Virus record (IMG/VR): IMGVR_UViG_3300031712_000052 | Span: 30,666-94,665 of that record | DNA: 64,000 bases | Strand: one strand, 5' to 3' | Source of the DNA: a virus | Taxonomy: Duplodnaviria > Heunggongvirae > Uroviricota > Caudoviricetes | Shown here: positions 1 to 63,717 of the stretch, one piece after another | Numbering within the stretch: position 1 is the stretch's first letter | How the letters are laid out: every line of letters starts with the position of its first letter | The notes under the pieces: model-generated | What the model was told of the DNA's origin: nothing | The model's database searches: none | Seen by the model: the letters and a program-made list of their open reading frames with translations, nothing else | Translations under genes and position numbers: made by a program

Positions 1-222
1 TTGGGAAGACATCGCAGTATCTGTCATCAACGTCGCTGCTGTTCGTAAGCTGGAGCTCTACTCCGCTGATGCAACGGTCAATAATGCTGACAGCTTGCTG
101 TCGAATCTGATCCCGAAAGCAGAAGAAGACCTGGGTGCTGAGAACAACAGGGTCGACGAGGGACTCGTGTTCCCACAGCTGGAGATCTTCTAACTCCTGC
201 GTAGGGCCTTCGTAGTTCGGTC

Positions 223-259
223 CAACGGGGGCTTGGCTTTCATGGGCCAGCCCCCGTTG
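223..259 (+). terminator. GC-rich hairpin (CAACGGGGGCTTGGC / GCCAGCCCCCGTTG) followed by a T-rich tract. It sits after the end of an upstream ORF that stops at about 192.
   Basis: Near-perfect 14-15 bp inverted repeat read directly, followed by TCTTATCT. Confidence 0.55.
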
Positions 260-284
260 TCTTATCTAACCTATTTAGATCAAT

Positions 285-317
285 TTGACACAACGCAATT
301 AGACGCAGTCTAATTGC
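285..317 (+). promoter_or_regulatory. Sigma70-like promoter TTGACA-N18-TCTAAT with an embedded perfect palindrome, GCAATTAGAC-GCA-GTCTAATTGC. This is a candidate operator site.
   Basis: The -35 box is at 285-290 and the -10 box at 309-314. The palindrome at 295-317 overlaps the spacer and -10 box. A GGAGAG RBS and the ATG at 348 follow. A near-identical copy lies at 33522-33554. Confidence 0.6.
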
Positions 318-347
318 ACCGCATCACAGATTTAGGAGAGAGATCAA

Positions 348-1082
348 ATGGCTGAAGAGAAGATGTTTACGATTCACAACATGTGCCGTGCCCAGAGCTC
401 CAGGGCTCAGAGGGCAGTGTCAGTTACTTCCCACAAGGCGTCACTGTGGGTAGATGGTAGAAAGGTTTTGCCGAAGAGACCTATCAAGATCTCTGTAGAG
501 ACTTTCAGTAAACTAGAGTCTGAGATCTTAAAGAAGCTGCGTGAAGGTCGCCTTGCCATCACTACGCCGGAACAGTACTACATAGACTCGAGACCGGATG
601 GTAGAATTTACGTAGTTCGTCCAGGCCATCAGATCGTAGAGGAGAAGGCAATAACCGAGGATTCTTTAAGGCTCCTGTTCGAGAAGCCTGCAGCTCCTGA
701 TTGGCATGACTTGCCTGTTCCCTTGAAGGATTGGGTAGGGCCTGGCCCAACTGATGATGCTCCTCTGGGAACTGATCAAGGTGCACCTCTGGGTGAGGCT
801 GCGGGTCCTGAAGGTCCAGTAGGCATGACTGGAACTGACTGTGGTGAGCAATCTCTAGGCCCACAAGGTCTTCCTGGTGTTGTTCCAATCGCAGATGAAG
901 TACCTCCTGTAGTTGATGGTGTGACGGTAGAGGTGAAGCCGGAAGAGTCGGCCCCAACTGCTGCCGCTTCTGAAGAAGTGACTGCAGAACTTCCAGACCC
1001 AAACACAGTACTGACTCTCGATACTCCTACCTCGACGCCGGTAGAAGAGCAATCAGTGAAGAGTAAGAAGCGGCGTCGTTAG
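348..1082 (+). CDS. Hypothetical protein. It has a low-complexity Pro/Gly/Glu-rich C-terminal half with short Gly-X-Y runs and a KKRRR tail.
   Basis: First ORF downstream of the promoter/operator. It starts with ATG. Antisense ORFs inside it are composition artefacts. Confidence 0.6.
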   Translation: MAEEKMFTIHNMCRAQSSRAQRAVSVTSHKASLWVDGRKVLPKRPIKISVETFSKLESEILKKLREGRLAITTPEQYYIDSRPDGRIYVVRPGHQIVEEKAITEDSLRLLFEKPAAPDWHDLPVPLKDWVGPGPTDDAPLGTDQGAPLGEAAGPEGPVGMTGTDCGEQSLGPQGLPGVVPIADEVPPVVDGVTVEVKPEESAPTAAASEEVTAELPDPNTVLTLDTPTSTPVEEQSVKSKKRRR

Positions 1083-1091
1083 GAGGATCTA

Positions 1092-1364
1092 GTGAAAGTC
1101 TTCAACAATACCGATAGAGCCCTTCCAGTAGACAGATGGACCATCTTCCCTAAGTCTACTAGGTGCGTGAATAATCAAGGTAAGGTCTTAGAGGAGCTTC
1201 CAGACGGTGTAGGGTATGGTTCAGTCATCAGGAGACTAGAAGCACAGGGAGTAGTTGTGCTTCCTAGCTTCGGCAAGGCGAAAAATGCTACACCTAGCAA
1301 GGAATCGGCAAGGGTTGCGCCATCAGCGTCTCCCACGTCTAGACGTGGGAAAGCCAAAAACTGA
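1092..1364 (+). CDS. Hypothetical small basic protein with a GTG start.
   Basis: An AGGAGGA RBS lies 6 nt upstream of GTG 1092. Confidence 0.4.
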   Translation: MKVFNNTDRALPVDRWTIFPKSTRCVNNQGKVLEELPDGVGYGSVIRRLEAQGVVVLPSFGKAKNATPSKESARVAPSASPTSRRGKAKN

Positions 1365-1409
1365 AGAGCCAAAGAAGACACCCAAGAAACGGAAGAAAGG
1401 TAAATCCTG

Positions 1410-1925
1410 ATGGCTCAGGAACTACAAGGTCTGGATGGAGTTGCCGGGGTAAGCCCCATCTTCAATGCCTTCATCCAGACTGTACGCTTCTTCATGAGGG
1501 ACCACCCTCAGTTGAATCGTTTGATCAAAGGTCAAGAGCACTCAGACCGTATGATTGCTTGGGCCATCATGGACTTCCTGTCTGACTTCGCTGGTACCCC
1601 GCCAGACCTGGGGTACCACTCTCTTGAAGAGCTATTCCGTATGCACTTTCAGTCCTTCGCTCTCCGTGGAACTGCTGTAGCACTCATGCAGTCTGTAGGT
1701 ATCCTACAGACCAGAAACTTCTTGCAGTTCTCTGATGGCGGAATAAGTGTGGCGGTAAGTGACAAAGCTCCAATGTGGATGCAATGGATCAGAGACTTCC
1801 AGACTAAGTACGAACAAGAGAAGATACAACGTAAAGTCGCCATGAACATCAAACAGGTCATGGGCGTCTTCTCTGGTGTCCATACCGAGTACTTCTTTGT
1901 GAACGGATGGTACGGGGTGTATTGA
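1410..1925 (+). CDS. Hypothetical protein.
   Basis: 171-aa ORF with protein-like composition. Confidence 0.5.
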   Translation: MAQELQGLDGVAGVSPIFNAFIQTVRFFMRDHPQLNRLIKGQEHSDRMIAWAIMDFLSDFAGTPPDLGYHSLEELFRMHFQSFALRGTAVALMQSVGILQTRNFLQFSDGGISVAVSDKAPMWMQWIRDFQTKYEQEKIQRKVAMNIKQVMGVFSGVHTEYFFVNGWYGVY

Positions 1926-1969
1926 CAGTGTATGGCGTACACCTGCTTTGAAATAGGAGACAGAACAAC

Positions 1970-2779
1970 ATGTACACTTACCACACATTCAGCAGCCCAG
2001 CTGAGTTGATCGATTTTTTGAATGGGGCTATTGTAGGACTCCCTCTTCCGTCGCTTGTATTTGGTCTACATGGCTTGACCCTTGTTGTGAATGATGGTTT
2101 GGCAGACAGGACAGTTACGTTCTCGGACCCCTCAGGTTTTGGTCTGTCTCCATTCGTTATATTGACTCAGGTTCAAGTAGTGCATGCCAACTTGGCCAAT
2201 GTGAAGTTGCGGAGTTATGGTCTATCTCCACAGAACTGGCAGCTAGTGTTAGATGCACAGGGGTATGCAGTCAAGGCCGGGACGGCAAATGTGGTTTTGG
2301 GATGGCCTGCTGGTGCTACTACGGTCAATCAGATCAGCAGTACTGACATCATACATGTAACTACATCTATAGCTAGCGGACCAAAGTACGCAGTCATAAT
2401 CAACTCAGATCAAGTGACGGCAGAAGAGATAGTAGCCGCATTCCCAGTAGGTTGGGATATGCATACTGCTGGCAGGACACCTTGGTACCGCGTAAGTCAC
2501 AAGAATATATCAATACAGATCAAATGGCCTGGCACTGGTAGTCCTTCTGGTGCTTTTGCTGTAGAAGTGACTGACAACCCCACAGATGTTACAGGCGATG
2601 CCATTCCGGGTGAGTACTTTGACGGAATAGATGATGCTCAACCTGCTGGCAGTGCAGGTGAGATCTTTGTGGATGATATAGAAACGGATGCTCTGTACAT
2701 CGCTGGTACATATACTCCAGCGCCGGGTGGTAGCGGAGTTGGGGCAGTTCCAACTATGTTATTTGTGTTCAAGGAGTAA
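1970..2779 (+). CDS. Hypothetical protein, possibly a virion component.
   Basis: 269-aa ORF with a GGAGA RBS upstream. It is beta-rich and Thr/Gly-rich. Confidence 0.5.
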   Translation: MYTYHTFSSPAELIDFLNGAIVGLPLPSLVFGLHGLTLVVNDGLADRTVTFSDPSGFGLSPFVILTQVQVVHANLANVKLRSYGLSPQNWQLVLDAQGYAVKAGTANVVLGWPAGATTVNQISSTDIIHVTTSIASGPKYAVIINSDQVTAEEIVAAFPVGWDMHTAGRTPWYRVSHKNISIQIKWPGTGSPSGAFAVEVTDNPTDVTGDAIPGEYFDGIDDAQPAGSAGEIFVDDIETDALYIAGTYTPAPGGSGVGAVPTMLFVFKE

Positions 2780-2783
2780 AGCT

Positions 2784-3383
2784 ATGGCCTATGTAACAGA
2801 GGGACATTCAGGATCAAGTGGACCCGCAGGACCATCAGGGCCATCTGGACCAGCAGGAGCACAAGGGCCATCAGGAGTACAGGGACCGTCAGGAGTGTCT
2901 GGACCTTCGGGACCGTCTGTATCAGGACCGTCAGGACCAGCAGGAGCACAAGGACCGTCAGGAGTGTCTGGACCTTCGGGACCGTCTGTATCAGGACCGT
3001 CAGGACCAGCAGGAGCACAAGGACCGTCAGGACCAGCAGGAGCATCCTCAACTGAGGCATTGGTACAGGGGCCCAATTTGGGGAATGCCGATGTAACATT
3101 TCATCCCGGTATAGACTGTGCCAGTCTATACGAGATACCTGCTGGCACTATGACGGGACCTCACAATTACAAAGCAGGTAATGATGGTACTATACCAAAC
3201 AACTTAGATGTATTTATCGTGTGTCGCGATCTGAGTACGAATGTCCCTACCATACTAAATGGTGGGGAAGGACTAGGGGTGTTATCAGCTTTTCCGGGCA
3301 CTAGACCAAGTCCTATGGGTATGTGGATACACTGGGATGGGACCAATTGGTACTGTGATAGTATTGTATGGATTAAGCCATGA
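2784..3383 (+). CDS. Collagen-like repeat protein. It has Gly-Pro-Ser/Gly-Pro-Ala triplets and a C-terminal globular domain, and is tail-fibre or decoration-like.
   Basis: AAGGAG RBS, then ATG 2784. About 30 uninterrupted G-X-Y triplets. Two tandem 69-bp DNA repeat units span 2886-3023, and partial upstream copies extend the motif toward about 2835. Confidence 0.7.
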   Translation: MAYVTEGHSGSSGPAGPSGPSGPAGAQGPSGVQGPSGVSGPSGPSVSGPSGPAGAQGPSGVSGPSGPSVSGPSGPAGAQGPSGPAGASSTEALVQGPNLGNADVTFHPGIDCASLYEIPAGTMTGPHNYKAGNDGTIPNNLDVFIVCRDLSTNVPTILNGGEGLGVLSAFPGTRPSPMGMWIHWDGTNWYCDSIVWIKP

Positions 3384-10226: not shown

Positions 10227-13200
10227 ATGGCTAGTGAACAGCTGCTTCAACCTGGCGTTACCGTCATTCAAGAGTTTCGTACTGTCAGCCCAACCATAGT
10301 GACCCCTACACTGGTTCCGTGTGCCATCGCCCCCGGATTCCAGGTAGTGCCAGCCATGGTTCTCAATGCTGCTGGCAATGATGTATTGAACTCACAAGCT
10401 GTTGTCTCTGTACCTGCAATCTTGGTAGCCGCTCTTCCGGCACCGTACACGGGTATGGACAATCTAGAGCTGAATGTGAGCATCAACAACGGACCAACTC
10501 AATCGTTCACATTCACTGCTCCTGCAGGTGCAAACCTGGACGCGGGGCAGGTGGCAGATCAAATTGAGTCCCAGTCTCCACAAGGCTTTGGCGCTTACGT
10601 GGTGGACGTCAATGGTACGTACTTCTTGCAGCTGCGTACCACCGCTACTGGTGGTGGCCAGAGCCTAAAGGTGTTGAGTGGCTCTGCAAATGCCGCTCTT
10701 GGCTTTGCGAATGACTACCAGGCATCCGGGGTCACCAACTACGACCAGACTAAGCTGCGCCTGGAGCAGCTGAACTTCCCTGATCCTCGTGGCATTATCG
10801 ACGAACTGGTTGTGGATGATGCTTCTATCAGAGCTTTCGTGAACACCGGTAAGACCTTGCTGGAGTTCCTCCGTACTCAGAGCTTCCTGCGAAACAAGAG
10901 GGACACCGTTTACACCTCTTTGGCAGATGTCTCTTCAATCCCAGTCACTGTATCGGGTCTTCAGTTTTCCTTCCAGCAAGGACAACAGGGCTCTGTGGAG
11001 CTGTACACATTCACTACTAACCCAACTACGGTGTCTGCCGTAGCTGCAGCTATGCAGGCCCTGCTGCCTGTAGGTTCTCAAGCACACATCACTGCGGTAG
11101 GAAACAAAGTTCAGATCGAAAGCGGTGCTGGTTACATCAAGATCGTAGCAGTTCCAACATCTGCAAACAGCGCTCACACCTTCTTGCACTTCGAAGATGG
11201 TGACGAAGCTTGGACACTCACAGTTGCAGATGATGGTGATGGAGATGCGACCAGTCCTCTTATAGTGGTTGGACAGGAAGTCTTTTCAGCACCTGCCGGC
11301 CATGCCGGTATTACTGGCTCTGTAGACATCAATACAGAGCTGGCCATCCACAACAAGAGCTTCCAGGTAGGGCTTGACGGTGGGCCGGAGCAGACTCTGG
11401 CCTTTGATGCTGGTCCTATCGTAGGGACGGTTGATCTAGCTATCACTGATCTGAATGGTCTTTCCATTCACTTCACCGTGAATGGATCTAACAAGACAGC
11501 CACACTTACTACACCGGCCAATATCGGTGATGTGGTATCCCAGATCAACGTACAGGCTGGGGCTGTAGTTTGCTACAAGTCTCTAAGTGATGGTGTTCCA
11601 AGTGATACGGGTACTAGACTTGCATTCCAGGTGGGTGGTGGGGTTGTAGCACCTGGTGGTGTAATCTCACTGACCTATGCTGGAGCAAGTGATGACGTAC
11701 TTTTCGATGGTTTGGGCTTTGCTTCCTATGTCACCACACCCAATGCCTCGGTGGTTTACCAGACCATCAGTCTTGCTGAGATCGTAGCACTGCTCAATGC
11801 AACTATGGGTGCTGGCTTTGCTGCCTTCAACCTATCGAATGATTTGGTGCTGTCATCCTCAATCTATGGGACAGAGTCCGAGGTACGCATTGGTCGTGGT
11901 TCTGCAAACACAGATTTAGGCTTCACGAATGACTTTGTGGCGAATGGTAACCCATTCCCACCAAAGGCCGGAGATCAAGTCTACGCCGATGGTGTGTTCA
12001 TTGGTAATGTCTCCTCTGTGGCACCAAGTGGTTACTCGACACGACTCAAGCTGGACAGAGAACTCTCATTGGGGTTCACTGCCCAGGCCATGTACATCGA
12101 GGCTATGAATATCCCAGCAACCTTGCCGGCCGATAGACCAACACCAGACTTGGTCATCGATCCCTCAGGTGCTGTTCTTATCAAGATGGAGGTCTTGCGG
12201 GATACTGAAGGATTCCCACTTACCAACGCAAGTGGAGCCTTGGTGGTCGCCTACAACGCTCTTCGTTTGGACGTTACACCACAAGCAAAGAGACCATCTC
12301 TGCTTACCTTCAGTGATATTTCTGTGCTGGAAGATGCACTGGACCCACTGACCCTGGATAACCCACTTGGCCTCATGTTCTACTTCATGATGACCAATGC
12401 TCCTGGTATCTCGGTTACTGGTATCGGTGTCAGTGCTGTAGGTGCCAATGATCCTGATGGTACCCCAGAAGCCTACACAGAAGCATTCAGCTTCTTGGAG
12501 GCCCAAGAGGTCTATGCTCTAGCTCCTGCTTCTCAGAATCCACTGGTGCACCAGTCTGGTATGGCTCACGTGCTTGCTATGTCAGAGCCTGATGCTGGCG
12601 GGGAAAGAGTGCTTCTGATTAACCCCAAGATGCCAAGTGAAGACTTGCCTGCCTTGGTGACAAGTGGTGAAGGAGATACCCTGGCAACAGCTCCTTCCGG
12701 GCACTGGTTCGATACCAAGATAGCAGCCTTGAATGCGGATGTTCTGGCACAACAGATCAACCCAACTGGTACCATTCCAGCAAGTGTGGGTCTGTACCTG
12801 CAACTAGCAACTAGTGCTCAGCACTACAACATTGCTCAGATCTCAGGAACCCGTGTGTTGATCAGGGATGCCTTTGCTCCTGGGGAAAATGATGATGGGT
12901 TCTACTCACAGAACTCTCCCCCATTTTCGGAGGAGTTGATTGGAGTCGGATTCACCGTCTATGTTCGTGGAACACCACTGCTGACCACAACTGGGCTGCC
13001 GGACTTCGATAGGATTGCAGCCGCTTACCAGAAGCTGGGTCAGACCTACGGCAATCGTCGTGTGGTTATGACGGCCCCTGAGAAGACTGCATCCATCTTG
13101 GATGGCGTGGAGATAGAGATTCCTGGTTACTACATCAATGCGGCAATCGCCGGAATGGTGGGACAGTTGCCTCCGCAACAGGGCTTCACCAACTACCCAA

Positions 13201-13643
13201 TCGCGGGATTCACAAGAGTCCTGGGTTCGAATGATGTCTTCAGCCGCTCTCAGATGAACGTAGGCGCGGCTGGAGGTACCTACTGGGTGGTACAAGAAAC
13301 AGCAGGTGCTCCACTCACAACCAGAATGCAGGTCACAACCGACCTGACAAGCATCGAGACTCGTGAGTTCTCTATCACAAGAATCGTGGACTTCGTAGCA
13401 AAGTTCATGCGGGTTGGACTTAGGAACTTCATTGGTCGCTTCAACATCACTCAGCCATTCCTGGATACCCTCTCCACCGTGGTCCAAGGACAACTTGGAT
13501 TCCTACGTGAGGCAGGTATCTTGGTGGGCGGAGATTTGAACAACGTGGTGCAGGACTCAAGTGCTCCTGATAGCGTGTTGATCGATGTCACTCTGGATGT
13601 TCCGTATCCCTGCAACTACATCCGACTGACGCTTGTGATTTAG
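10227..13643 (+). CDS. Very large 1138-aa putative virion structural protein.
   Basis: AAGGAG RBS. Composition is Thr/Ser/Gly/Ala-rich and beta-like with no repeats. No recognisable enzymatic motif. Confidence 0.6.
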   Translation: MASEQLLQPGVTVIQEFRTVSPTIVTPTLVPCAIAPGFQVVPAMVLNAAGNDVLNSQAVVSVPAILVAALPAPYTGMDNLELNVSINNGPTQSFTFTAPAGANLDAGQVADQIESQSPQGFGAYVVDVNGTYFLQLRTTATGGGQSLKVLSGSANAALGFANDYQASGVTNYDQTKLRLEQLNFPDPRGIIDELVVDDASIRAFVNTGKTLLEFLRTQSFLRNKRDTVYTSLADVSSIPVTVSGLQFSFQQGQQGSVELYTFTTNPTTVSAVAAAMQALLPVGSQAHITAVGNKVQIESGAGYIKIVAVPTSANSAHTFLHFEDGDEAWTLTVADDGDGDATSPLIVVGQEVFSAPAGHAGITGSVDINTELAIHNKSFQVGLDGGPEQTLAFDAGPIVGTVDLAITDLNGLSIHFTVNGSNKTATLTTPANIGDVVSQINVQAGAVVCYKSLSDGVPSDTGTRLAFQVGGGVVAPGGVISLTYAGASDDVLFDGLGFASYVTTPNASVVYQTISLAEIVALLNATMGAGFAAFNLSNDLVLSSSIYGTESEVRIGRGSANTDLGFTNDFVANGNPFPPKAGDQVYADGVFIGNVSSVAPSGYSTRLKLDRELSLGFTAQAMYIEAMNIPATLPADRPTPDLVIDPSGAVLIKMEVLRDTEGFPLTNASGALVVAYNALRLDVTPQAKRPSLLTFSDISVLEDALDPLTLDNPLGLMFYFMMTNAPGISVTGIGVSAVGANDPDGTPEAYTEAFSFLEAQEVYALAPASQNPLVHQSGMAHVLAMSEPDAGGERVLLINPKMPSEDLPALVTSGEGDTLATAPSGHWFDTKIAALNADVLAQQINPTGTIPASVGLYLQLATSAQHYNIAQISGTRVLIRDAFAPGENDDGFYSQNSPPFSEELIGVGFTVYVRGTPLLTTTGLPDFDRIAAAYQKLGQTYGNRRVVMTAPEKTASILDGVEIEIPGYYINAAIAGMVGQLPPQQGFTNYPIAGFTRVLGSNDVFSRSQMNVGAAGGTYWVVQETAGAPLTTRMQVTTDLTSIETREFSITRIVDFVAKFMRVGLRNFIGRFNITQPFLDTLSTVVQGQLGFLREAGILVGGDLNNVVQDSSAPDSVLIDVTLDVPYPCNYIRLTLVI

Positions 13644-33137: not shown

Positions 33138-33506
33138 CTACATCGAATAGATCTTTCCGTCATCGCCCACATAAAACCATACTTCACCCATGGCTTCTGC
33201 AGACCGGGTGAGGAGTAGTTCATTATCTTCAGTAGTGAATTTCTGGCACCTATCCCAGAAGCCACAGCCGTGCCCGCACCTGGTCAAGAACAAATCGTGC
33301 CCAGCTTGTGCGTCTGGATAGCCTTTTAGTTCTTCCGCATTTTCTTCTCTGAACTTCTTGCAGTCTTCAGTAGCCTGCAGTACTGCCTCTGGTGCTATGT
33401 CTTTGATGCTGTGTAACTTCTCTAGGGGTTCACCCTCATGCTCCTCTCTTTCGTCAATGCTGGCCCACAAGGCACACGTCAGGTATGCCTGCAAGAATTC
33501 GTGCAT
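33138..33506 (-). CDS. Hypothetical protein.
   Basis: A GGAGGA RBS lies upstream of ATG 33506. Confidence 0.5.
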   Translation of the reverse strand: MHEFLQAYLTCALWASIDEREEHEGEPLEKLHSIKDIAPEAVLQATEDCKKFREENAEELKGYPDAQAGHDLFLTRCGHGCGFWDRCQKFTTEDNELLLTRSAEAMGEVWFYVGDDGKIYSM

Positions 33507-33521
33507 TCGATCTGTCCTCCA

Positions 33522-33554
33522 TTGACACAGTGCAATTAGACTGCGTCTAATTGC
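33522..33554 (+). promoter_or_regulatory. Second copy of the TTGACA-N18-TCTAAT promoter with the GCAATTAGAC-TGC-GTCTAATTGC palindrome. It is plus-oriented inside the minus-strand gene block.
   Basis: About 40/45 nt identical to 282-325. It would fire antisense into 33565-33885. Confidence 0.5.
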
Positions 33555-33564
33555 ACTGCATCAT

Positions 33565-33885
33565 CTAACCAATACGTTGGGTCACATACTGGTACACGTT
33601 GATCAGTTTCTTGGCACGCTCGGCGGCACAAGCTAATGCCCACATCTCATCATCGTAGCAAGCCGCCATACGGCAGACCTTCATGAGCTTGTGTGCTGCT
33701 TCGATCTTCTCTTTCTCTGTTACTGCTTCAAGTGACCCAGATCTTTCGATAGCTGGTCGTAATGCAGTGAGCTTGTGTTCCAAGCCCATAACTATTACCA
33801 ACCTCTTGAACTCTTGTGCAGCTTTTTCGAACTCCAGATCAAAGATGAACTGGTCAATTTCATTTTCCTGATCATCCCTGAACAC
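33565..33885 (-). CDS. Hypothetical protein.
   Basis: 106 aa. Confidence 0.45.
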   Translation of the reverse strand: MFRDDQENEIDQFIFDLEFEKAAQEFKRLVIVMGLEHKLTALRPAIERSGSLEAVTEKEKIEAAHKLMKVCRMAACYDDEMWALACAAERAKKLINVYQYVTQRIG

Positions 33886-37908: not shown

Positions 37909-38910
37909 CTGTACCTACTTCTTTGTGTCTTTAGCTATTGTTACACAGTGAATCTAGATATAACCCGAGAGCGTTTTTCACTGTACCTACTTCTTTGCTT
38001 CTCTACTCATTGTTACGTATCTTGAACCCCAGCGTGGACACTCGGCCTGAAACTGTACCTACTTCTTTGTTTCTCTACTCATTGTTGATTCTTGCGGTGG
38101 CTTGCTGTACCTACTTCTTTGCTTACGTGTACGCGAACCCAGTTAGCTATCTGTACCTACTTCTTTGCTTCTTCTAACCCGTCGATTTTGCTGTACCTAC
38201 TTCTTTGTTTCTACATTAGTTGTTACGGCGTCGTGTCCAACCCGAAAGGTGACTGTACCTACTTCTTTGCTTCTCTACGCATTGTTACTCGGGCACCGAA
38301 CTCTTCTCATCCTGTACCTACTTCTTTGCTTCTATACCCATTGTTACGACCCATGCAGCTTTCTTCGGGGTGAACCCGTGGACTGTACCTACTTCCTTGT
38401 TTCTCTACTCATTGTTACAGGGTGACCAACCTGTGTTTCCTTTGCCGCCGTCTTCTGTACCTACTTCTTTGTTTCTTGGTTATCCCGTTTGTGGCACTTG
38501 TATGTCTTCTGCCTGTACCTACTTTTTTGCTTCTTTAGCCATTGTTACTTGTCCGACGGTCACACGGCAGAAAGCAGGAAATCATCTGTACCTACTTCTT
38601 TGTTTCTCGACTCATTGTTACATCCCCAAAGGCCGTTCCCAAGCGCACCAACACTCTGTACCTACTTCCTTGTTTCTCGACTCATTGTTACGTGGCCGTA
38701 ACAATGACAGCGGCACCGAGCCGGGCTGCTGTACCTACTTCTTTGTTTCTCTACTCATTGTTACCTGGGCGTGCCGCTGGTGGCCCTGTTCAGAAAGCCA
38801 CCTGTACCTACTTCTTTGTTTCTCTACTCATTGTTACCTAGTTGCCTTTGATTCTTTGGGTAGACTGCAGTCGACTGTACCTACTTCTTTGTTTCTCTAC
38901 TCATTGTTAC
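37909..38910 (-). CRISPR. CRISPR array. It has a 36-nt repeat, 13 full copies, 3 truncated copies and 15 unique spacers of roughly 16-37 nt.
   Basis: Repeats start at 37909 (degenerate), 37981, 38053, 38105 (20-nt fragment), 38151 (20-nt fragment), 38191, 38253, 38312, 38383, 38455 (22-nt fragment), 38513, 38586, 38656, 38729, 38802 and 38875. The three copies at the high-coordinate end are identical. The strand is inferred from the polymorphism gradient and the cas operon direction. Confidence 0.9.
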
Positions 38911-38959
38911 AGCAGCGTCTAAAAGGTAAGCACTTTCGGTAAGTTAATAGGGCAATTAC

Positions 38960-39017: not shown

Positions 39018-39602
39018 TTACTGCTTGCTCAACTTCTCTTTGAACTTCTCCACCTTCTCCTCGGCCACCTCGGCTCTCTTCTCTGCCGCGAGCCTCTTTC
39101 TCTTCTCTTCCTTGAGCTGTTTCTCAAGGTCCTTGATGATTTCGTGTAGCCTCGCGGTCTCTGACTGCTTCCCACCCACTCCAACCTTAGGAGCCACTAC
39201 CTTTGACACCATCCTGGTGACTGCCTCTGTGGATGGTTTCCTACCCCTTTCCTCATACCACTGCTCAAGCTGGGTCATCATGTCCTTCTCTACACGCGAG
39301 TCGGGCGGTAGACGAATACATGTGATAGCCGACTCCACCCCATACTTCAGCACCCACTCTCTCCCAAAGCGTTCGAGGGCTGTGCCTAGCCGCTTGAACT
39401 TTGCTGGGGACCAAGAGAACTCAGTCTCCAAGCAGTCTCCAAAGGTGCCGTACTTGACTTTCCAGAGCTCATTGTCCCTGAGATTCTCACAGACGTAGTC
39501 GTAGAACTTCAGGATGAACTCATCTGGCTTGAGGAGGAAAGACCTTGCAGTGGTGATGACTGCTATGAACTTCTCTACCAATCTGTCTCCTACATTACTC
39601 AT
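39018..39602 (-). CDS. Unknown 194-aa protein, translationally coupled to the Cas12-like gene. It has a C-terminal Lys/Glu coiled-coil tail.
   Basis: Its ATG overlaps the stop of the upstream gene by 4 nt. It lies between the effector gene and the array. Confidence 0.55.
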   Translation of the reverse strand: MSNVGDRLVEKFIAVITTARSFLLKPDEFILKFYDYVCENLRDNELWKVKYGTFGDCLETEFSWSPAKFKRLGTALERFGREWVLKYGVESAITCIRLPPDSRVEKDMMTQLEQWYEERGRKPSTEAVTRMVSKVVAPKVGVGGKQSETARLHEIIKDLEKQLKEEKRKRLAAEKRAEVAEEKVEKFKEKLSKQ

Positions 39603-41275
39603 CGTGTGTCCCTTTCAGCTTTAGTCTTTGGGGGTTTCTTCCCTTTCATCTTTCCTTTGGATGCCTCGTTCAATGTCTGTTGCAACTCTTCACGTACCAG
39701 CCAATACCTGCTGTTCTGGGGCAGGTCTACCTTTTTGGCCAGGCTCAAGTCTATGATCGCATTTTCAATTGCGATGCGATCTATGTGGCCACTGTAGGTG
39801 CACTTGACACAGTTGAAGCGCCAATTCTTGAAGTCCAAGGCAGCCTCATTGAGGCTGCCACAGCTAGGGCATCGGCGGGTGTGGTAGAAGGTCTTGAACT
39901 TCTCAACCTCCACACCATGTTTGGCTGCGTCCTGGGTGACGTAGTCAACAATCTTGAACCAAGGTGCTTGGTGCACCGCCACCTTGATCCACGGGTCAAG
40001 GTCTGACTCCTCAGCTCTCTTTCGGATGTTCCTGAGCTCAGGAAGCCAGATCTTACTGCGTGTGTTTATCGCCTTGCCCACAATGCGAGCCGCTACCTTC
40101 CTGCAGAAACTGTCCACCACCTCGGCCTCATCATTGTCTAGCTTGAACCTGTTGACTTGATACATGTGCCCTTTACCAGGCACTCGAAGCTGGCTGCATC
40201 TCTGAATCTCTTTCCGTCTGGCACGAATACGCCCTCTCCTCGCAGCGAAACCATCACCAAACACCCAGAACCCCTGGCTCCTATTGAGAGCCTCCTCCAC
40301 TGTGAGAGCCACTGTGAATACCTTCAACCCACAGTGAACTATGATGTTGTTCTTCACTGCTAGCACTGGTGGCTTGGGTCGGCGGTACTGAAGGAGGACA
40401 AACCACTTATTGTCCTCACGATACAGACCCATAGTGCCTGGAGCCCAGACATCCTGAGTGGGTACAGCAGTGGCTAGGTCTTTCCTGAGGTATTCTCCCG
40501 CTGCAACTCTACTCAGAACTCCACGCACGTAGTTGTCTTGCTTGGCTTTCCTCAACCTCAAGGCCAAGTTCCACCATGTCCCATCCAAGTTCACCGATAT
40601 GTTCATGCCATCTCTGCGTGAGAACCTCCAGCCGGTAGGACGAAGCCACACAGGCCAGCTGTCCTTGATGTTCATTACCGACTCTTCACCTATGGCGACT
40701 TTCTTGAGACTCTTGGTGAATGCCTCCGCAAGTCGGCGTGACATTGCACCAGTGACGGAGGAGCTGACTTGTGGCACACGTTCCTCATCCATCCCTCCCA
40801 CCAGTTCTCTGCCCACGACCCTATAGGCGAGTGTGCCCAGCACCTCTCGCTCATCCGCTCTTGGCTCCAGCCTCACTCTCTTCTTCTTTTCAGGGTCTTG
40901 CTGGGTTGTGTCCAGGGCTGGAAGCGGCTTGTCCAGGTTGAGCCACATGCTTCGTATGGCGGCATTGCCAGCTATCCTCACCCTCTTCTGGATGAGGGTA
41001 AGTACACGAAAAAACGCTCTAGCGATTGTCCTTGGTTCTTCGAGAACCGGGGGTGCGTTTTCGATCTTCTTGCCGTTCTTGTCTTTGGGTGATACCCAAA
41101 CCTTGGGTAGCCAGGCATGCTTGCCACCTGCTACCGGAATAAAGTGTTCTCTCTTTTCCGGTACGTCACTGAGGAAAGAGATGGGATCTTTGCACCTGTC
41201 CAATGCTGTAGCTACCTCGAGTTTGAGGATGCCCAGCATCTCATGCTTTCTCTTCTCACGAGTTGCTTTGTTCAT
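39599..41275 (-). CDS. cas12-like: Compact 558-aa type V Cas12/TnpB-like RuvC nuclease with a zinc ribbon.
   Basis: RuvC-II IWLPELRNI. Zinc ribbon CPSCG...CVKC. RuvC-III GHIDRIAIENAI matches the TnpB/Cas12 HADxNAAxNI motif. The candidate RuvC-I is ISVNLDGTWWNLAL. AAGGAA RBS. Confidence 0.75.
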   Translation of the reverse strand: MNKATREKRKHEMLGILKLEVATALDRCKDPISFLSDVPEKREHFIPVAGGKHAWLPKVWVSPKDKNGKKIENAPPVLEEPRTIARAFFRVLTLIQKRVRIAGNAAIRSMWLNLDKPLPALDTTQQDPEKKKRVRLEPRADEREVLGTLAYRVVGRELVGGMDEERVPQVSSSVTGAMSRRLAEAFTKSLKKVAIGEESVMNIKDSWPVWLRPTGWRFSRRDGMNISVNLDGTWWNLALRLRKAKQDNYVRGVLSRVAAGEYLRKDLATAVPTQDVWAPGTMGLYREDNKWFVLLQYRRPKPPVLAVKNNIIVHCGLKVFTVALTVEEALNRSQGFWVFGDGFAARRGRIRARRKEIQRCSQLRVPGKGHMYQVNRFKLDNDEAEVVDSFCRKVAARIVGKAINTRSKIWLPELRNIRKRAEESDLDPWIKVAVHQAPWFKIVDYVTQDAAKHGVEVEKFKTFYHTRRCPSCGSLNEAALDFKNWRFNCVKCTYSGHIDRIAIENAIIDLSLAKKVDLPQNSRYWLVREELQQTLNEASKGKMKGKKPPKTKAERDTR

Positions 41276-41298: not shown

Positions 41299-41560
41299 TG
41301 TTGATCTAAATGAATGGCTGCATGTAAGATGAGGTTACCAAAGAAGTAGGTAGTCCCTGAACTAGTCAGGAACGCATGGTAGCTAGCTTGCGCTAGTACC
41401 TCAGCAGAGCGGCTCGCGGGAGTGAAATCCGGCGACTTCTCCGCTATTGGGCCGTGCCATCGACCCCTCACGCTTTAGATCATAGCTGAACTAGTCAACC
41501 AGACCCTAGGCATGGGTGGTGCCTCACCCCTCACATGCAGCCATTCATTCAGATCAACAG
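41299..41560 (-). ncRNA. Candidate structured ncRNA, tracrRNA-like, or a MITE-like element. It is bounded by about 38-bp imperfect inverted repeats and contains a 14-nt anti-repeat at 41339-41352.
   Basis: The segment at 41299-41336 is the inverse complement of 41522-41560. CAAAGAAGTAGGTA at 41339-41352 is the inverse complement of repeat nucleotides 4-17. Internal direct repeats are CTGAACTAGTCA x2 and CCCCTCAC x2. Confidence 0.35.
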
Positions 41561-41705: not shown

Positions 41706-42179
41706 CTACAACTGTACCTTTCTACTCTTACGTGGCCGGGGAGAGTAAGAGGTATGCGATGCTCTCCTACTGATGTCCATGAGCTGTCTGAGCCTTTCAG
41801 GTGTGATGTCCCTATCATTGATCAGGCCAGCTCTCCTCAAGCCTTTAGCTACCTTGGCCACAGCATTGACCTCGAGTTGTCTAACACGTTCGCGGGTGAC
41901 ACCAAGAGTGATACCTACTTCATTCAAGGTATGGTCTCTGGTGGTCAGCTTCAGTACGCATGGCTGCCCCCGCTGCTTGGTTAGGGCTGTATCCCTGGCA
42001 TCATGTGCTATGTGATACCTGCAATACTTGAGTGGGCAGATACCACTCTTGCTGAGACATTGACCATCGGTGACTTCGAAGATGTTCTCAGGGTCTATGT
42101 GGTCTGGTACTGAGTCCAGGCGTTCATTCTCTTCCACTCTATTGGCTGCAGCCAATAGACCTACTTCATCATCAATCAT
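41706..42179 (-). CDS. Sigma-70 region-4-like HTH protein, a small sigma factor or transcription regulator.
   Basis: TLNEVGITLGVTRERVRQLEVNAVAKV matches the sigma r4.2 consensus TLEEVG..GVTRERIRQIE.KAL.KL. Confidence 0.6.
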   Translation of the reverse strand: MIDDEVGLLAAANRVEENERLDSVPDHIDPENIFEVTDGQCLSKSGICPLKYCRYHIAHDARDTALTKQRGQPCVLKLTTRDHTLNEVGITLGVTRERVRQLEVNAVAKVAKGLRRAGLINDRDITPERLRQLMDISRRASHTSYSPRPRKSRKVQL

Positions 42180-47865: not shown

Positions 47866-48223
47866 CCTACTTATACCTGCTCTACCCCACTCTCTTGCCC
47901 TTCCTTACCTTTCCTCAAACAAAACGACCGGCGGAAGAAGAGTCACTCTATCCCTCACTTTCAGTAACCCCCTCACCTACTACCCTGGCTACTACAGATG
48001 TGAGACTGATTGCATAGAGGCACTGATTGCATGGGTATGTGTACTCTCTAGCGTTACATTGTAAGTGGCTTATGATCTGTTTTTAATAGATCGAGCTAAT
48101 TCCTTAATGATGTCGTGTAGTTACGTGACTAGGTCGTATTGATAGACCCCTATGTCGTGTAAGTGCGTAAAAGTACTTGCAATATGGGTGTTCTTGGTCA
48201 ATTATTAGATCTTATGAGCACCC

Positions 48224-48300
48224 ATCCTCAGTAGCCTGAGACCTTCTCACTAGCCTCTCCTCAGTAGCCTCTCCTCAGTAGCCTCTCCTCAGTAGCCTGG
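48224..48300. repeat. Tandem 14-bp repeat TAGCCTCTCCTCAG, three full copies plus partial copies, in the strand-switch intergenic region.
   Basis: Full copies at 48251-48292. Partial copies at 48226-48250 and 48293-48300. Confidence 0.7.
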
Positions 48301-48326
48301 GTAGCGCATATGCAAGGAGCCTGAAA

Positions 48327-52600: not shown

Positions 52601-53136
52601 TGGGTATAGACCATAAGTACAATGACAGGGACGCTCCCATTCTAGGGTTCAGAGGTCCTACCAAGTGGCTTTCCAACTTCTGGCCAGCTGACATCAAATT
52701 TGAGGGTCTCATATACCCTGCCAATGAGAACGCATTCCAGGCAGCCAAATTCCCGCAGGAGGAAAGGCTCAAGTTCACTGTATGCAATCCCAGGGAAGCC
52801 AAGGAGATGGGCAAGACTACGCCAATGAGCGAGCTTCGACTGAAGGAGTGGATGGGTGGTCTTCGGGACATGGTTATGCTCCAGGTTAACATGGAGAAGT
52901 ACCGAGCTCATGAGATACTGAGAAACACACTCATTGCTACTGGGAATGCCTATCTAGAAGAGACCAACAACTGGGGGGACAGGTACTGGGGAGTATGCGG
53001 TGGCGAGGGAGAGAACATGTTGGGTAGAATCCTCATGGAGCTCAGAACGCACCTGAAGCTAGACTGGAAAACGCACTTGTATGCATACGATGAGCGTATG
53101 ATGGACAACATTAAACAATGCAGGAGGGTTGCCTAA
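52600..53136 (+). CDS. NADAR domain protein of the YbiA/DUF1768 family.
   Basis: Motifs GFRGPTKWLSNFWPA, YPANENAFQAAKF, WGDRYWGVCGG and GENMLGRILMELR. The start is set at ATG 52600, not at the longer track ORF. Confidence 0.65.
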   Translation: MGIDHKYNDRDAPILGFRGPTKWLSNFWPADIKFEGLIYPANENAFQAAKFPQEERLKFTVCNPREAKEMGKTTPMSELRLKEWMGGLRDMVMLQVNMEKYRAHEILRNTLIATGNAYLEETNNWGDRYWGVCGGEGENMLGRILMELRTHLKLDWKTHLYAYDERMMDNIKQCRRVA

Positions 53137-53340
53137 TGACGGTACGACGACTGAAAAAAATGCTGGCCTTGTCCAAATTGTCAGATGATTCTGAGGTTGC
53201 AGTTCACACAGACTCAAACTTTAGAGACCATACAGTGAGTGGCTGTCGCTGTGAACCCCTCCGGTCACGCTACTTTGCTGGTCATGAACCTAAGTCCAAA
53301 GAAACAGACTGCCTGATTTTGGATGTTGACTGAGTAGCCA

Positions 53341-53622
53341 ATGCCTAAATGCACTCACAGATGGCAGCGAGTACCCCATCTAGGTAGATTCAAGTTCAAG
53401 TGTGATTGGTGTGAGTTGTTTGGTTTTTGTACTGAGTGGGGTAAGAACGGGAAGATACTTCCGCACTCCCAGGAAGTATCAAATGATTTGAGAGAGCAGT
53501 ACATTCAGTTGACTCTACGGAGGAACGGTAAGGTACCTCCTTCCAAGAGCAGCATATATGCTCCACCTCTTCCTTGCATATTACCTAGAGTTAGAAGTCA
53601 TGAAGAGCACCGCGAGGATTAA
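53341..53622 (+). CDS. Zn-ribbon module protein of the CxHxW...CxxC...GF type.
   Basis: CTHRWQRVPHLGRFKFKCDWCELFGF. Confidence 0.45.
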   Translation: MPKCTHRWQRVPHLGRFKFKCDWCELFGFCTEWGKNGKILPHSQEVSNDLREQYIQLTLRRNGKVPPSKSSIYAPPLPCILPRVRSHEEHRED

Positions 53623-54328
53623 GATACCTACATTCTGTCTACACCATTGGAAGCCTATTCCTGCAATAGGTGTACGCAAGTACATGTGCACCGAATGTTT
53701 GATGTTTGGGTTCAGGTTGAAGTGCGATCTTGTGTCCAGAACACACGAGCACTCAGTTGAAGTGTCTAATGACCTGTTAGACCAGTACTTGGCCCTAGTA
53801 CCCGTAGCTACGTATAAGGAGCCGGAGAAGAGGTCTGGACCTAGACCTGGTCCATTCAGAATGCTCGAGTACGATGGCTGTGAGCATAAGTGGGTTCCAG
53901 CTCCAGAGTATAGTGACTGCCGTCACTCACGGTTGCAATGTACCAAGTGTAAAAGGTTGGGGAGAAAGCTGGCAACTGGTGAGATAACTCCCTTTGTCAA
54001 AGAGTACGACGATAGCTTGCGGAGAAGTCATAAGGTCCAGCAGCGCCTTAATCAGGAGCCAGCATGTGCCCATGAGTGGAAGCCAGTACCACAACTAGAT
54101 ACTAAGTGCGTGAAGCGCTACGAGTGTAGTAAGTGTAGATGGTTGGGGTATAGAGTGGGTGTAAGGGTTCCGATCAAAACACACACTGTATATTCTACTG
54201 ACAGAATAAGATCTGAATATGAGCTGAACAGAAAGGACTCCAATGGTAAAGAAGAACAAAAAGACGGCGTCTTGCCCGAAGAACCCAAAGTGGCGCTCAA
54301 TATTCAAGAGTGCGGTGGGGAATCATAA
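53603..54328 (+). CDS. Protein carrying three copies of the same Zn-ribbon module.
   Basis: Copies are CLHHWKPIP...MCTECLMFGF, CEHKWVPAP...CTKCKRLG and CAHEWKPVP...CSKCRWLGY. Confidence 0.5.
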   Translation, partial: KSTARIKIPTFCLHHWKPIPAIGVRKYMCTECLMFGFRLKCDLVSRTHEHSVEVSNDLLDQYLALVPVATYKEPEKRSGPRPGPFRMLEYDGCEHKWVPAPEYSDCRHSRLQCTKCKRLGRKLATGEITPFVKEYDDSLRRSHKVQQRLNQEPACAHEWKPVPQLDTKCVKRYECSKCRWLGYRVGVRVPIKTHTVYSTDRIRSEYELNRKDSNGKEEQKDGVLPEEPKVALNIQECGGES

Positions 54329-54797
54329 GGGTAAAAGGAACTGTGTGTCCCCTCCACAAAAGACAATACCACCATATGAGATACATACAGACGGGAGAAC
54401 AGTGTGGGTGAATAACCCTACATGCGTAGCTAGGTTCTGCAGACTTTCATATGAGTTTGTGAATTTCGATAAGCTAGAATGCGTAGGCTTCGTTGCCAAA
54501 GGGTCCACAATCGAGGACTGGAGGACTTTTGTACTTGCTGTCTTCACAAGATTTGGAATCGCCATTCCAGATAAGTTCATGCCTAGCTACGTAGGAAAGC
54601 CCAGCCTGACCAAGGCGGAGTGGGCACTGCTGGAGGCGACAGATGGTATGTCACGTGGATCAGACCTGCGAGACTCAACAGGAATGTCAGACACTGAGGG
54701 TAATGCCATCATAACTTATGTCAAGAGGTTACGGTTGGAGCATGATGATGAATGGCGGAAGACAACGTGGGTAGAAATCATGTCTAAGGCGGATTAG
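54243..54797 (+). CDS. Hypothetical protein.
   Basis: The start is uncertain. It overlaps the upstream gene, and the GTG at 54312 is an alternative start. Confidence 0.4.
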   Translation: MVKKNKKTASCPKNPKWRSIFKSAVGNHKGKRNCVSPPQKTIPPYEIHTDGRTVWVNNPTCVARFCRLSYEFVNFDKLECVGFVAKGSTIEDWRTFVLAVFTRFGIAIPDKFMPSYVGKPSLTKAEWALLEATDGMSRGSDLRDSTGMSDTEGNAIITYVKRLRLEHDDEWRKTTWVEIMSKAD

Positions 54798-55059
54798 ATC
54801 AATGGGCAAGAGACGTACTTACAGATTGATAGCTGAAGACCAATGGCTACCCAGTGGCTTCGTGACTAGAGACATGAATCGGTATAACAGAGCCTGGACA
54901 AAGCTAGGTCGTACTTTGTCCAGCTTCTTTGATAAGAGATGCTTCGGTTGTAACCCAGGGTTCGTATTCGAGGGCCCAAGGGAACCCACTAGACTGGCAT
55001 CAGAGGATGCGATCAAAATCTGGGAACTCATCAACAAGAGGAAGTGGAAGGACTAGCGC

Positions 55060-55473
55060 ATGATCAGACCCAGTAATGGTGCGGCCCCATTCGAACTACC
55101 AGATGCGCCTGTGGATGGCTACAAGGTCACCTGGTGGAGAGTTGAGGGTTTTGATGACAATGTCCACGTGATCGAATGCCATGCCACGTACTATGTACAC
55201 AAGAAGTGGAATGAGTACTGTCCAGATAGACCGGGTGGTGCAGACATCATAGATTCGTGGATGATACAGGACATAATGAGGTGTAGGGGTGCTGGTTGGT
55301 CTAGCGCCTGGGATCTTGATGACTGGAAGAGGGACAAGTATTTCAGCACCAAGAAAGAGGCACTAGAGGAGGTCATACGGCAGTTAAGAATGAGCAGAGA
55401 GGAGTTTGTCAGTCTGAGCATACGGTGTGCTGACAACATCCACAAGCTGTTAGCAGAGCTGGGAGGTTTGTAA
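55060..55473 (+). CDS. Hypothetical protein.
   Basis: 137 aa. Confidence 0.45.
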   Translation: MIRPSNGAAPFELPDAPVDGYKVTWWRVEGFDDNVHVIECHATYYVHKKWNEYCPDRPGGADIIDSWMIQDIMRCRGAGWSSAWDLDDWKRDKYFSTKKEALEEVIRQLRMSREEFVSLSIRCADNIHKLLAELGGL

Positions 55474-55879
55474 ATGTGGACTTCACTAGTGTGTTTGTTC
55501 TTGGGGGCACTTACCTCTAACCAAGTTAGAGGTTGTCGTACACGCACCTCGGGATACGGGGCACTTTGAGGCCAGTGGGCCGTGTGCTTCACAAATCATG
55601 TCCCAGGCACTTCGTGCTGCACAGGGATTCACTACAGTGTCTTTGCTGTGCCCTAGATGCAGTAAGATCAAAGTAATCGAACAATGAACTGCTTTGCATG
55701 CGGTGGCCCGTACCATCCAGCTACGGGCCACTTGTTCCGTGAGTATGAGGGCGTCGCTTATTGTGGGCCTTGTATCCGACACTTCATCAACGAGTTCGTT
55801 AAGAATATGATGCAAGGTAGGAGATGGGGAGGAGTGAACTTCTATGAAGAGGCCGCAAAGAAACAAACAGGAGAAACCA

Positions 55880-56281: not shown

Positions 56282-56283
56282 CC

Positions 56284-63706: not shown

Positions 63707-63717
63707 CATGATCGTAA

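Follow-up and report, generated by a model that had tools for sequence, protein, structure and literature searches.

A conserved, multi-copy promoter-like element with an overlapping palindrome, a putative operator, in a large uncultivated phage

What is the short palindromic element that stands between the genes of a large tailed phage of peat soils, and what might read it? The element lies twice in the stretch analysed here, 64,000 nucleotides (nt) of a Caudoviricetes virus (IMG/VR record IMGVR_UViG_3300031712_000052, positions 30,666 to 94,665), which we call the window and to which all positions given without a contig label refer. A preliminary description, made from the letters of the window, had read the element as a repressor-controlled consensus promoter, TTGACA-N18-TCTAAT, carrying a perfect palindrome of two 10-nt arms around three central nucleotides (10-3-10) across its spacer and -10 box. 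What is observed directly is its sequence, the number and conservation of its copies, their symmetric co-variation and their homology of position with canonical promoters. Judged by these comparisons, the element is a real, strongly selected, multi-copy cassette that appears to join promoter and operator in a generally known manner, its promoter activity, the sign of regulation and the binding protein being the parts that we infer. With moderate confidence, we interpret it as a sigma-70-type promoter with an overlapping 23-base-pair (bp) palindromic operator for a symmetric, probably phage-encoded regulator.

In the window, TTGACA-N18-TCTAAT with the palindrome GCAATTAGAC-N3-GTCTAATTGC sits at 285-326 (copy 1) and at 33522-33563 (copy 2), and the parts of the two copies are as follows.

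276-283, plus strand: motif TAGATCAA, immediately 5' of the copy 1 -35 hexamer
285-290, plus strand: copy 1 -35-like hexamer TTGACA, 6 of 6 positions matching
291-308, plus strand: copy 1 spacer, 18 nt
295-317: copy 1 perfect 10-3-10 palindrome, the putative operator, made of GCAATTAGAC (295-304), GCA (305-307) and GTCTAATTGC (308-317)
309-314, plus strand: copy 1 -10-like TCTAAT, within the right arm, 5 of 6 positions matching, C for A at position 2
321-326, plus strand: copy 1 GCATCA, predicted start region 7 nt past the -10, quasi-symmetric partner of TGACAC at 286-291
33522-33527, plus strand: copy 2 -35-like TTGACA, 6 of 6 positions matching, on the strand opposite to the local genes
33528-33558: copy 2 perfect 14-3-14 palindrome CAGTGCAATTAGAC-TGC-GTCTAATTGCACTG, its core 10-3-10 at 33532-33554
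33546-33551, plus strand: copy 2 -10-like TCTAAT
33558-33563, plus strand: copy 2 GCATCA, adjoining the stop codon (33565-33567, minus strand) of the gene at 33565-33885 (minus strand)

The sequence is as first described, and the 10-3-10 pattern occurs exactly twice in the 64-kb window with up to three mismatches allowed, where shuffled sequences would give 0.01 occurrences. A repeat finder reports the two copies as a 42-nt direct repeat of 86% identity (D7), the sole long repeat of such kind in the window. The identity between them had been put at about 40 of 45 nt, which proved too high: 36 of 45 nt agree, or 36 of 42 over the span from TTGACA to GCATCA. In copy 1, caac separates TTGACA from the left arm and acc separates the right arm from GCATCA; in copy 2, cagt precedes GCAATTAGAC-TGC-GTCTAATTGC and act precedes GCATCA. 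The central triplets of the two copies (GCA vs. TGC) are reverse complements of each other, and the flanks are direct. Because copy 2 is palindromic, TCTAAT can also be read there on the minus strand, at 33540-33535. The palindrome, with 40% G+C, has no T-run on either strand; lacking a U-tract it is therefore not an intrinsic terminator, and a terminator scan omits both copies. Relative to the predicted start it extends from about -27 to -5, and in copy 1 its dyad centre falls on position 306, 16 nt past the -35 hexamer and over the edge of the -10. At the Rfam gathering score the element is unmatched, the only matches within the window being two tRNAs.

Is the element confined to these two places? 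A 153,573-nt contig (L127, ena:ERZ27245406:k141_2520405; retrieved contigs and loci carry L numbers here) contains window positions 52867-64000 at 100% identity (L124) and bears a third copy at L127:9943-9975, 48 nt 5' of a ResIII helicase gene that leads an operon with UDG, NUDIX, DnaB, primase and PolA. A fourth copy stands on a 79-kb contig with an identical helicase locus (L005), where it overlaps the stop codon of a gene for 975 amino acids (aa), with a terminator about 15 nt downstream and no gene behind it. The search for further copies that the preliminary description had proposed thus yielded two more in the same phage genome and many in relatives, and what had been taken for a shared pair turns out to be a family with four or more members in one genome. 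The assignment of the helicase and 975-aa loci to a divergent phage, considered because they have no proteins in common with the window, was ruled out, since both loci belong to the genome of this phage. The pattern TTGAC[AT]-N16-18-T[AC]TAnT finds only these four sites in 117 kb of that genome, against 0.62 in shuffled sequence. The genome of the phage is large, with contigs of 133-154 kb. The clade to which it belongs is large and entirely uncultivated, and homologues of the helicase number more than 1000, on contigs of 100-190 kb. No homologue of the helicase protein was found among GenBank phages.

Exact-pattern scans gave 8 viral, 21 metagenome and 2 genome-collection stretches with the 23-mer. 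Once three unrelated longer palindromes were removed, namely the matches L009/L025, from a Chlamydiae metagenome-assembled genome (MAG), and the genome-collection match L021, 17 distinct contexts of this palindrome, called type I below, were left. The metagenome scan is incomplete, having missed contig Ga0265323_10000207, which carries copy 2. The identical palindrome occurs in several related phage contigs from peat and fen, with 45-60% GC. Among genomes of 185,579 bacterial and archaeal species, one per species, the exact 23-mer was met only in a phage-like contig in a MAG and in one unrelated longer palindrome, and this near absence from cellular genomes makes a host-chromosome regulon unlikely. 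In L002/L007, which hold orthologues of copy 1, the DNA just 5' of the element is swapped for unrelated sequence and the element is kept. A relative of 59% GC (L011) has two copies, each behind the C-terminal remnant of a gene of about 1000 aa. Each of these copies is followed by GAATAATYCGGCTGTTTTC and then by a repeated, G+C-rich and structured-looking segment of about 100 nt (loci concerned: L011 3755-3850 and 4320-4420, L011 4200-4225 and 5275-5300, and L015). The G+C-rich segments may represent small RNAs driven by the element.

The 10-bp arms are invariant in all 17 of the distinct type I contexts, across loci of 45-60% GC, and they stay unchanged even between flanking genes that are unrelated or share only about 75% identity. 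Degenerate or half-changed copies with up to five mismatches were not found in 316 kb of related loci, and two relaxed pattern scans of IMG/VR produced no variants, only chance matches within coding sequence (L032, L033). Orthologues of copy 2 (L034-L039), traced via homologues of the 122-aa protein, keep its position and orientation, in L034/35 even with that protein at 74% identity. A second form, type II (CTGTACTAGAC-N3-GTCTAGTACAG), has four inner pairs and one extension pair altered on both arms. It occurs at the copy 2 orthologue in L036-39 (protein 64% identical) as CTGTACTAGAC-TCA-GTCTAGTACAG, and also at the helicase-upstream site of another contig from the same sample (L040/L066); the type II contigs are IMGVR_UViG_3300037551_000020 and _000050. 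The core TAGAC-N3-GTCTA is common to both types, and across 19 sequences there are 0 unpaired cells in the inner 10 pairs. These comparisons indicate that the arms are under purifying selection and that the symmetry itself is what selection keeps. A block-wise symmetric change at two loci fits a dimeric DNA-binding protein co-evolving with its operators.

The centre and the flanks of the palindrome behave differently from its arms. The central triplet is restricted to GCA, TGC, TCA and TGA, i.e., two reverse-complement pairs, and it flips between orthologous copies; the orientation of the centre is therefore irrelevant to function, which would be expected of a binder with two-fold symmetry. 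Such flips are the signature of hairpin-mediated micro-inversion in a phage genome. Outside the arms, GCATCA is kept in 13 of the 19 instances (variants GCGTCA, GCGTTA and GCAGCA), and the outer motifs are fully symmetric in L010/L022 (TGATGC..GCATCA) and in L019 (TGCTGC..GCAGCA, a symmetric double change).

What, then, suggests a promoter? The -35 position in relatives reads TTGACA, ATGACA, TTGATG or TTGCTG, and the distance from TTGAC(A/T) to the palindrome is constant in all type I and type II copies and also in two further palindrome types, III and IV, at the helicase locus. To compare this locus across the clade, the upstream regions of 80 helicase-orthologue loci were fetched. Three of them (L047-49) carry TTGACA-N16-TATAAT with no palindrome, L045 carries TTGACT-N17-TACAAC and L059 carries TTGACT-N18-TACGTA. 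In L059/60, TTGACT is followed by an 11-3-11 palindrome, CCAGTGCGTAC-agt-GTACGTACTGG, and in L064/65, TTGACA is followed by another, AAAAGGYGTAC-gtt-GTACGCCTTTT; in L043 the intergenic element is wholly absent. A scan for the type III palindrome finds only the helicase-upstream copy on each contig. From this alignment of orthologous sites, the helicase-upstream position appears to hold a sigma-70-type promoter in the clade, with a constant -35 and palindromes that differ by lineage at the same distance from it. Moreover, one cassette, TAGATCAAyTTGACACA-[palindrome]-AnnGCATCAaaayTTAGGAGA-ATG, stands 5' of three unrelated genes. In copy 1, the helicase copy and L004, a Shine-Dalgarno sequence (SD) lies 13-17 nt past the palindrome, with a gene downstream. 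The preliminary view of a selected cis-regulatory site with a promoter-like layout and an operator-like palindrome is borne out by this conservation and positional homology.

The motif TAGATCAA is kept in the gene-upstream copies of the cassette (copy 1 of the window, L001, L004 and L008). In the window as a whole it occurs 12 times, vs. 2.2 expected, e.g., at 276, 27314, 41301, 48919, 54795 and 63609, and it often directly precedes a start codon (AGATCAA-ATG), the -35 hexamer of the element or the tRNA-Tyr gene.

The surroundings of the two window copies differ from each other. Gene direction in the window changes twice: up to about 16 kb the genes are on the plus strand, between about 17 and 47.9 kb on the minus strand, and beyond 48.3 kb on the plus strand once more. 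The features next to the two copies are given here.

224-258, plus strand: G+C-rich terminator-like hairpin followed by TCTTATCT (RNA fold of 193-347), 3' of the major head gene
334-338, plus strand: Shine-Dalgarno AGGAG ahead of the first gene downstream of copy 1
348-1082, plus strand: first gene past copy 1, 244 aa, no family match
33138-33506, minus strand: gene whose SD (33516-33520, minus strand) is abutted by the copy 2 TTGACA; phrog_1915, unknown function

A viral contig that is 100% identical to window positions 1-2836 and reaches 8.2 kb further upstream (L006) identifies the plus-strand gene ending at 192 (L006:7243-8364) as that of the major head protein (phrog_2522, E=1.5e-7), and the 1138-aa open reading frame (ORF) at 10227-13643 has a tail-sheath-like end. 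Since the head gene and the hairpin lie directly 5' of copy 1 and further structural genes lie 3', copy 1 is placed inside the structural region. The plus-strand block does not begin at 348, as had been supposed, because the major head gene already ends at 192 and the terminator hairpin follows at 224-258. Orthologues of the gene at 348-1082 in L001/L002/L007 have the same element in front. Copy 2 occupies a 58-nt gap between two minus-strand genes, both of which are called in independent assemblies. Its TTGACA adjoins the SD of one and its GCATCA the stop codon of the other, so as a promoter it faces antisense to both neighbours and heads no gene block. On the genes flanking both copies, Pfam and PHROGs gave nothing useful beyond phrog_1915. 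An IMG/VR pattern scan found no relatives of the 33138-33506 protein, and its orthologues were reached via the protein database. Against GenBank phages, megablast searches with 12 kb and with 7 kb of window sequence gave no match, nor did the element itself in distant mode.

Several results weigh against the promoter-operator interpretation. A sigma-70 -10 resembles TATAAT, with A at position 2 and T at position 6, behind a spacer of 17±1 nt, whereas here TCTAAT (TCTAGT in type II) carries C at position 2 and follows an 18-nt spacer. Neither copy is listed by a consensus promoter scan because C replaces the most conserved -10 A of sigma-70. The word "consensus" in the preliminary description is therefore apt for the -35 and not for the -10 or the spacer, and a promoter of this form may be weak unaided or dependent on another factor. 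Two of the four copies have no gene downstream, copy 2 being antisense and copy 4 running into a terminator, and genes for replication and for structure share this type of promoter, a combination unusual in a temporal class. The phage also encodes a 2059-aa fused RNA polymerase beta/beta' with Rpb2_6, Rpb1_2 and Rpb1_5 domains (L127 1-1751), and having its own polymerase it leaves the enzyme that reads these sites uncertain. As to the type II change, that both loci come from one genome is assumed from the shared sample and synteny, and a concerted change of short repeats could also reflect gene conversion between copies. Lastly, the expected regulator was not found: a Pfam search of 106 window ORFs gave no repressor-type domain and no helix-turn-helix (HTH) or ribbon-helix-helix (RHH) repressor. 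Pfam on 82 small ORFs from about 117 kb (the window and about 53 kb more) at E<=0.1 gave no HTH or RHH besides a sigma-70 region 4, and NCBIfam and PHROGs on the genes neighbouring the copies gave no regulator. The dedicated dimeric regulator proposed earlier is thus in keeping with the symmetric double changes of type II at two loci, while its gene, sought as an HTH or RHH protein in the window and about 53 kb more, did not turn up.

The sole recognisable sequence-specific DNA-binding domain is the Sigma70_r4 domain of a 157-aa protein (41706-42179, minus strand), whose C-terminal half matches the HTH of RpoD region 4.2 (TLNEVGITLGVTRERVRQLE; VTRERVRQLE), with region 2 not detected. An HTH of the RpoD 4.2 type would be expected to read TTGACA, not the palindrome. 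The protein has no close relatives in IMG/VR, and its gene heads the block of a Cas12-like gene, in an island absent from the syntenic region of a type II relative. With this HTH, without IMG/VR relatives and with the island missing in the type II relative, it is a poor candidate for the regulator of the palindrome. A regular-expression search for RHH-like N-termini found no match, although this test is unreliable.

In function the element is akin to operators within promoters that a mobile genome uses repeatedly, and in its distribution to the PeSL (promoter-early stem-loop) cassettes of T4-type phages. Repressor operators overlap sigma-70 promoters in phage P22, where Arc and Mnt act at Pant and Pmnt, and at many IncP promoters, where KorA and KorB act. 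As in those cases, the palindrome here lies between the -35 and the start and over the -10, the operator is reused at several promoters to give a small regulon, and operator symmetry implies a dimeric or tetrameric binder. Unlike them, it comes with no cognate protein found, with half-sites of 10-11 bp plus possible outer ones, with a defective -10 within the palindrome, and with one copy antisense and one running into a terminator. The Arc operator consists of inverted TAGA boxes 5 bp apart. The invariant core TAGAC-N3-GTCTA reads TAGA-N5-TCTA and contains AGAC/GTCT, which resembles the Arc boxes and the met-box of MetJ, a resemblance of short motifs only. By this analogy, the two motifs point, as a lead, to a small RHH protein. 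The met-box itself is AGACGTCT (PMC3413123); unlike here, its halves are contiguous and tandemly repeated, and no RHH protein was detected here in about 117 kb. MerR-type promoters likewise have a palindrome between a good -35 and a -10 with an over-long spacer. However, the spacer here is 18 nt rather than 19-20 nt, the dyad lies at about -15 over the -10 edge rather than mid-spacer, and Pfam finds no MerR domain among the window ORFs or the 82 small ORFs. The early promoters of phage N4 are template-strand hairpins for the virion RNA polymerase, with stems of 5-7 bp and a purine at the loop centre. The element shares with them a 3-nt loop, a more stable template-strand hairpin, a small number of copies and a phage-own polymerase, and it differs in having a stem of 10-19 bp, no purine rule at the loop centre and a canonical -35; the polymerase, moreover, is a 2059-aa beta/beta' fusion and not a giant T7-like virion enzyme, no gene of about 3500 aa being seen. 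Finally, the PeSLs of T4-type phages combine a terminator hairpin with a promoter and are repeated intergenically (PMC2839356, PMC4122927). Like them, the element is a short conserved composite in a large phage, placed where gene modules meet and where relatives differ by an indel or a replacement. Here, too, terminator precedes promoter at copy 1 and promoter precedes terminator in L005, and breakpoints are seen in L002/L007, L043 and L011, with only about four copies. Unlike it, PeSLs have no palindromic operator, are present in many more copies and stand in hyperplastic regions (PMC4122927), whereas the element occurs in at least four copies, keeps its palindrome strictly and falls into discrete specificity types.

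Could the palindrome be something other than an operator within a promoter? It might be a site for a symmetric phage protein and no promoter, with the role of a transcriptional roadblock or insulator between operons, or of organising the genome, for example as a centromere or as a landmark for packaging or replication. The whole would then be a 41-bp quasi-palindrome, TGAYRC-N3-GCAATTAGAC-N3-GTCTAATTGC-N3-GYRTCA, in which TTGACA is merely one version of an outer half-site. The outer motifs are indeed quasi-symmetric, fully so in L010/L022 and L019, every copy lies at a gene or module boundary, two of the four have no gene to drive, and the -10 is defective. We nevertheless regard this as unlikely, if the first alternative to be kept in mind, since TTGAC(A/T) of types III and IV at the helicase locus has no symmetric partner, three copies have an SD and ATG at a fixed distance downstream, and the sites are linked to no gene for a ParB-like, terminase-associated or initiator protein; in L047-49, where TTGACA pairs with TATAAT and no palindrome is present, it therefore acts as a -35. 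Slightly less probable in our estimate is that a nucleic-acid hairpin, and not duplex recognition, is the function. Such a hairpin might be an RNA stem-loop serving as a processing, stability or translational-coupling signal in read-through transcripts, most plausibly at copy 2, or an extruded DNA hairpin serving as a promoter for the sigma-less beta/beta' polymerase of the phage in the manner of the N4 virion polymerase. The strand opposite TTGACA pairs over 19 positions, with 94.2% of cells paired including G-U vs. 82.8% on the TTGACA strand, and its folds are stable both as RNA (-21.4 kcal/mol for copy 1 and -27.9 kcal/mol for copy 2, z-scores -5.8 and -7.2) and as DNA (-10.2 and -17.0 kcal/mol). 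At copy 2 the mRNA has the sense of this better-pairing strand, and the element falls between the stop codon of one gene and the SD of the next, an arrangement kept in L034-L039 with the compensatory type II changes included; an extra role at the RNA level is therefore possible there. The centre flips, being a mutational signature of hairpin formation, and the phage-own polymerase agree with a hairpin as well. However, compensatory drift would be expected of a hairpin, yet the arms are frozen in 17 contexts and change only block-wise at two loci together. At three of the four copies, the strand that pairs better runs antisense to every local gene, and there is neither a U-tract nor an Rfam match. 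The G-U asymmetry stems from three inherited transitions, two of which are those turning TTGATG into TTGACA. As for the DNA version, stems of 10-14 bp with G or C at the loop centre are unlike N4-type promoters, and no giant virion polymerase gene is seen.

The spread and identity of the copies might instead come from recombination between copies and between co-infecting phages, the element being a mobile or recombinogenic, PeSL-like cassette with no dedicated regulator. The identical element at non-homologous intergenic sites of one genome and in phages differing in GC fits this, as do the empty orthologous site in L043, the upstream replacement in L002/L007, the two L011 copies behind gene remnants, and the joining of promoter and terminator hairpin at copies 1 and 4, like PeSLs (PMC2839356, PMC4122927). 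Recombination alone would, however, leave both the perfect palindrome that is kept and the joint change of type II half-sites unexplained, and as a full account we find it quite improbable; mobility is compatible with a promoter-operator function and probably complements it. A host transcription factor whose operator is exploited by phages would explain why phages of different GC content have an identical site and why no phage regulator appeared among the 106 window ORFs and 82 small ORFs. The 23-mer is, however, missing across the genomes of the 185,579 species except in the phage-like contig and the unrelated palindrome, and close phage relatives in similar peat samples have a different specificity type, which makes this the least probable of the readings and very improbable in itself. 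On a par with the mobile cassette in improbability is that the palindrome is a recognition element of the phage transcription machinery and not a repressor site. The template-strand hairpin (19 pairs, with G-T wobbles) could be extruded and read by the fused beta/beta' polymerase, or the inverted -35-like TTGACA...CATCAA could be bridged by the free-standing sigma region-4.2 protein of 41706-42179. If this were true, the element would represent a promoter class that is new and depends on structure, read by a phage polymerase of the multisubunit type, with types I-IV as lineage-specific promoter specificities.

Returning to the promoter-operator interpretation, how would the element work? That the element acts as a promoter, that a protein binds it, which sign the regulation has and which polymerase reads it are all inferred, and the proposed sequence of events is conditional on them. 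A regulatory cassette of about 45-75 bp in a giant uncultivated phage would combine a promoter, with -35 TTGACA, an 18-nt spacer, a weakened -10 TCTAAT and a start near G321, with an operator, the palindrome that fills the spacer and covers the -10. A dimeric or tetrameric symmetric protein, probably encoded by a phage gene outside the window, would recognise the palindrome and may also contact the flanking TGAYRC/GYRTCA half-sites, one helical turn outward. Its binding would set the access of RNA polymerase to the promoter, in the simplest case by occluding the -10, i.e., by repression. As the operator stands at no fewer than four places in the genome, one factor would co-control several units. 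At copy 1, transcription would begin anew once the major head gene and the terminator behind it are passed, and would run into the structural genes that follow; at the third copy, it would start the helicase/UDG/DnaB/primase/PolA operon. Copy 2, lying backwards in a minus-strand operon, might produce RNA antisense to the upstream gene or, when bound, serve as a roadblock.

The window and its parent contig hold several further features. A CRISPR-like array at 37909-38911 consists of sixteen repeats of 36 nt (CTGTACCTACTTCTTTGTTTCTCTACTCATTGTTAC) separated by spacers that are also about 36 nt long, with repeat decay toward the 37.9-kb end, and the 558-aa gene beside it (39599-41275, minus strand) has a Cas12f1-like TNB domain, so that the two make up a phage-borne CRISPR-Cas12-like locus. 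One spacer (38765-38801) matches two related phage contigs that carry the type I palindrome, L012 (26/28) and L019 (20/20), and such matches suggest phage-versus-phage targeting. A 30-nt inverted repeat (41299-41328 / 41530-41559, 93% complementary, arms 201 nt apart; I3) flanks a small ORF just 5' of the Cas12-like gene. Genes of the TROVE/Ro-like and radical SAM kinds are also present on the 153,573-nt contig. The motif GTATGTG is about 6-fold enriched in the 90 nt upstream of genes, e.g., 29309(-), 31217(-), 48035(+), 3319(+) and 33589(-), occurs twice as (C)CAGTATGTGgATAAGTAAGTA about 55 nt ahead of a start codon (repeat D10), and has a counterpart, GTATGTA, in helicase-upstream regions of relatives; it may mark a second, phage-specific promoter class. 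Within the 461-nt divergent intergenic region 47866-48326, which separates the minus-strand from the plus-strand gene block, a 14-nt unit, CTCCTCAGTAGCCT, stands in tandem at 48243-48298 (D5), and these units may be iterons or regulatory repeats. Two exact repeats were noted, one of 28 nt (TAAGGGTAAAAGGAACTGTGTGTCCCCT) at 54326-54353 / 56235-56262 (D13) and one of 20 nt (CCCAAGAAACGGAAGAAAGG) at 1381-1400 / 57910-57929 (D9). Collagen-like GPxG nonamer repeats (2827-3060, D4) within an ORF of the structural region gave rise to spurious matches with other loci. At the right end of the window, at 63628-63879, three tRNA genes (Tyr-GTA, Lys-TTT and Lys-CTT) follow in a row.

What does the element offer for the biology of this clade? 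The genes of the clade are almost without family matches, and a conserved promoter-operator would therefore be a handle on its transcription programme. The element would mark the starts of transcription units past the head gene and ahead of the replication operon, and it predicts a trans-acting factor that could be caught with the 23-bp DNA as bait. Types I-IV, found at one orthologous promoter, would amount to a natural experiment in which the regulator may be sought by co-variation and the origin of specificity switches followed. Current concepts are unchanged by the element, which is a useful annotation and an experimentally tractable lead.

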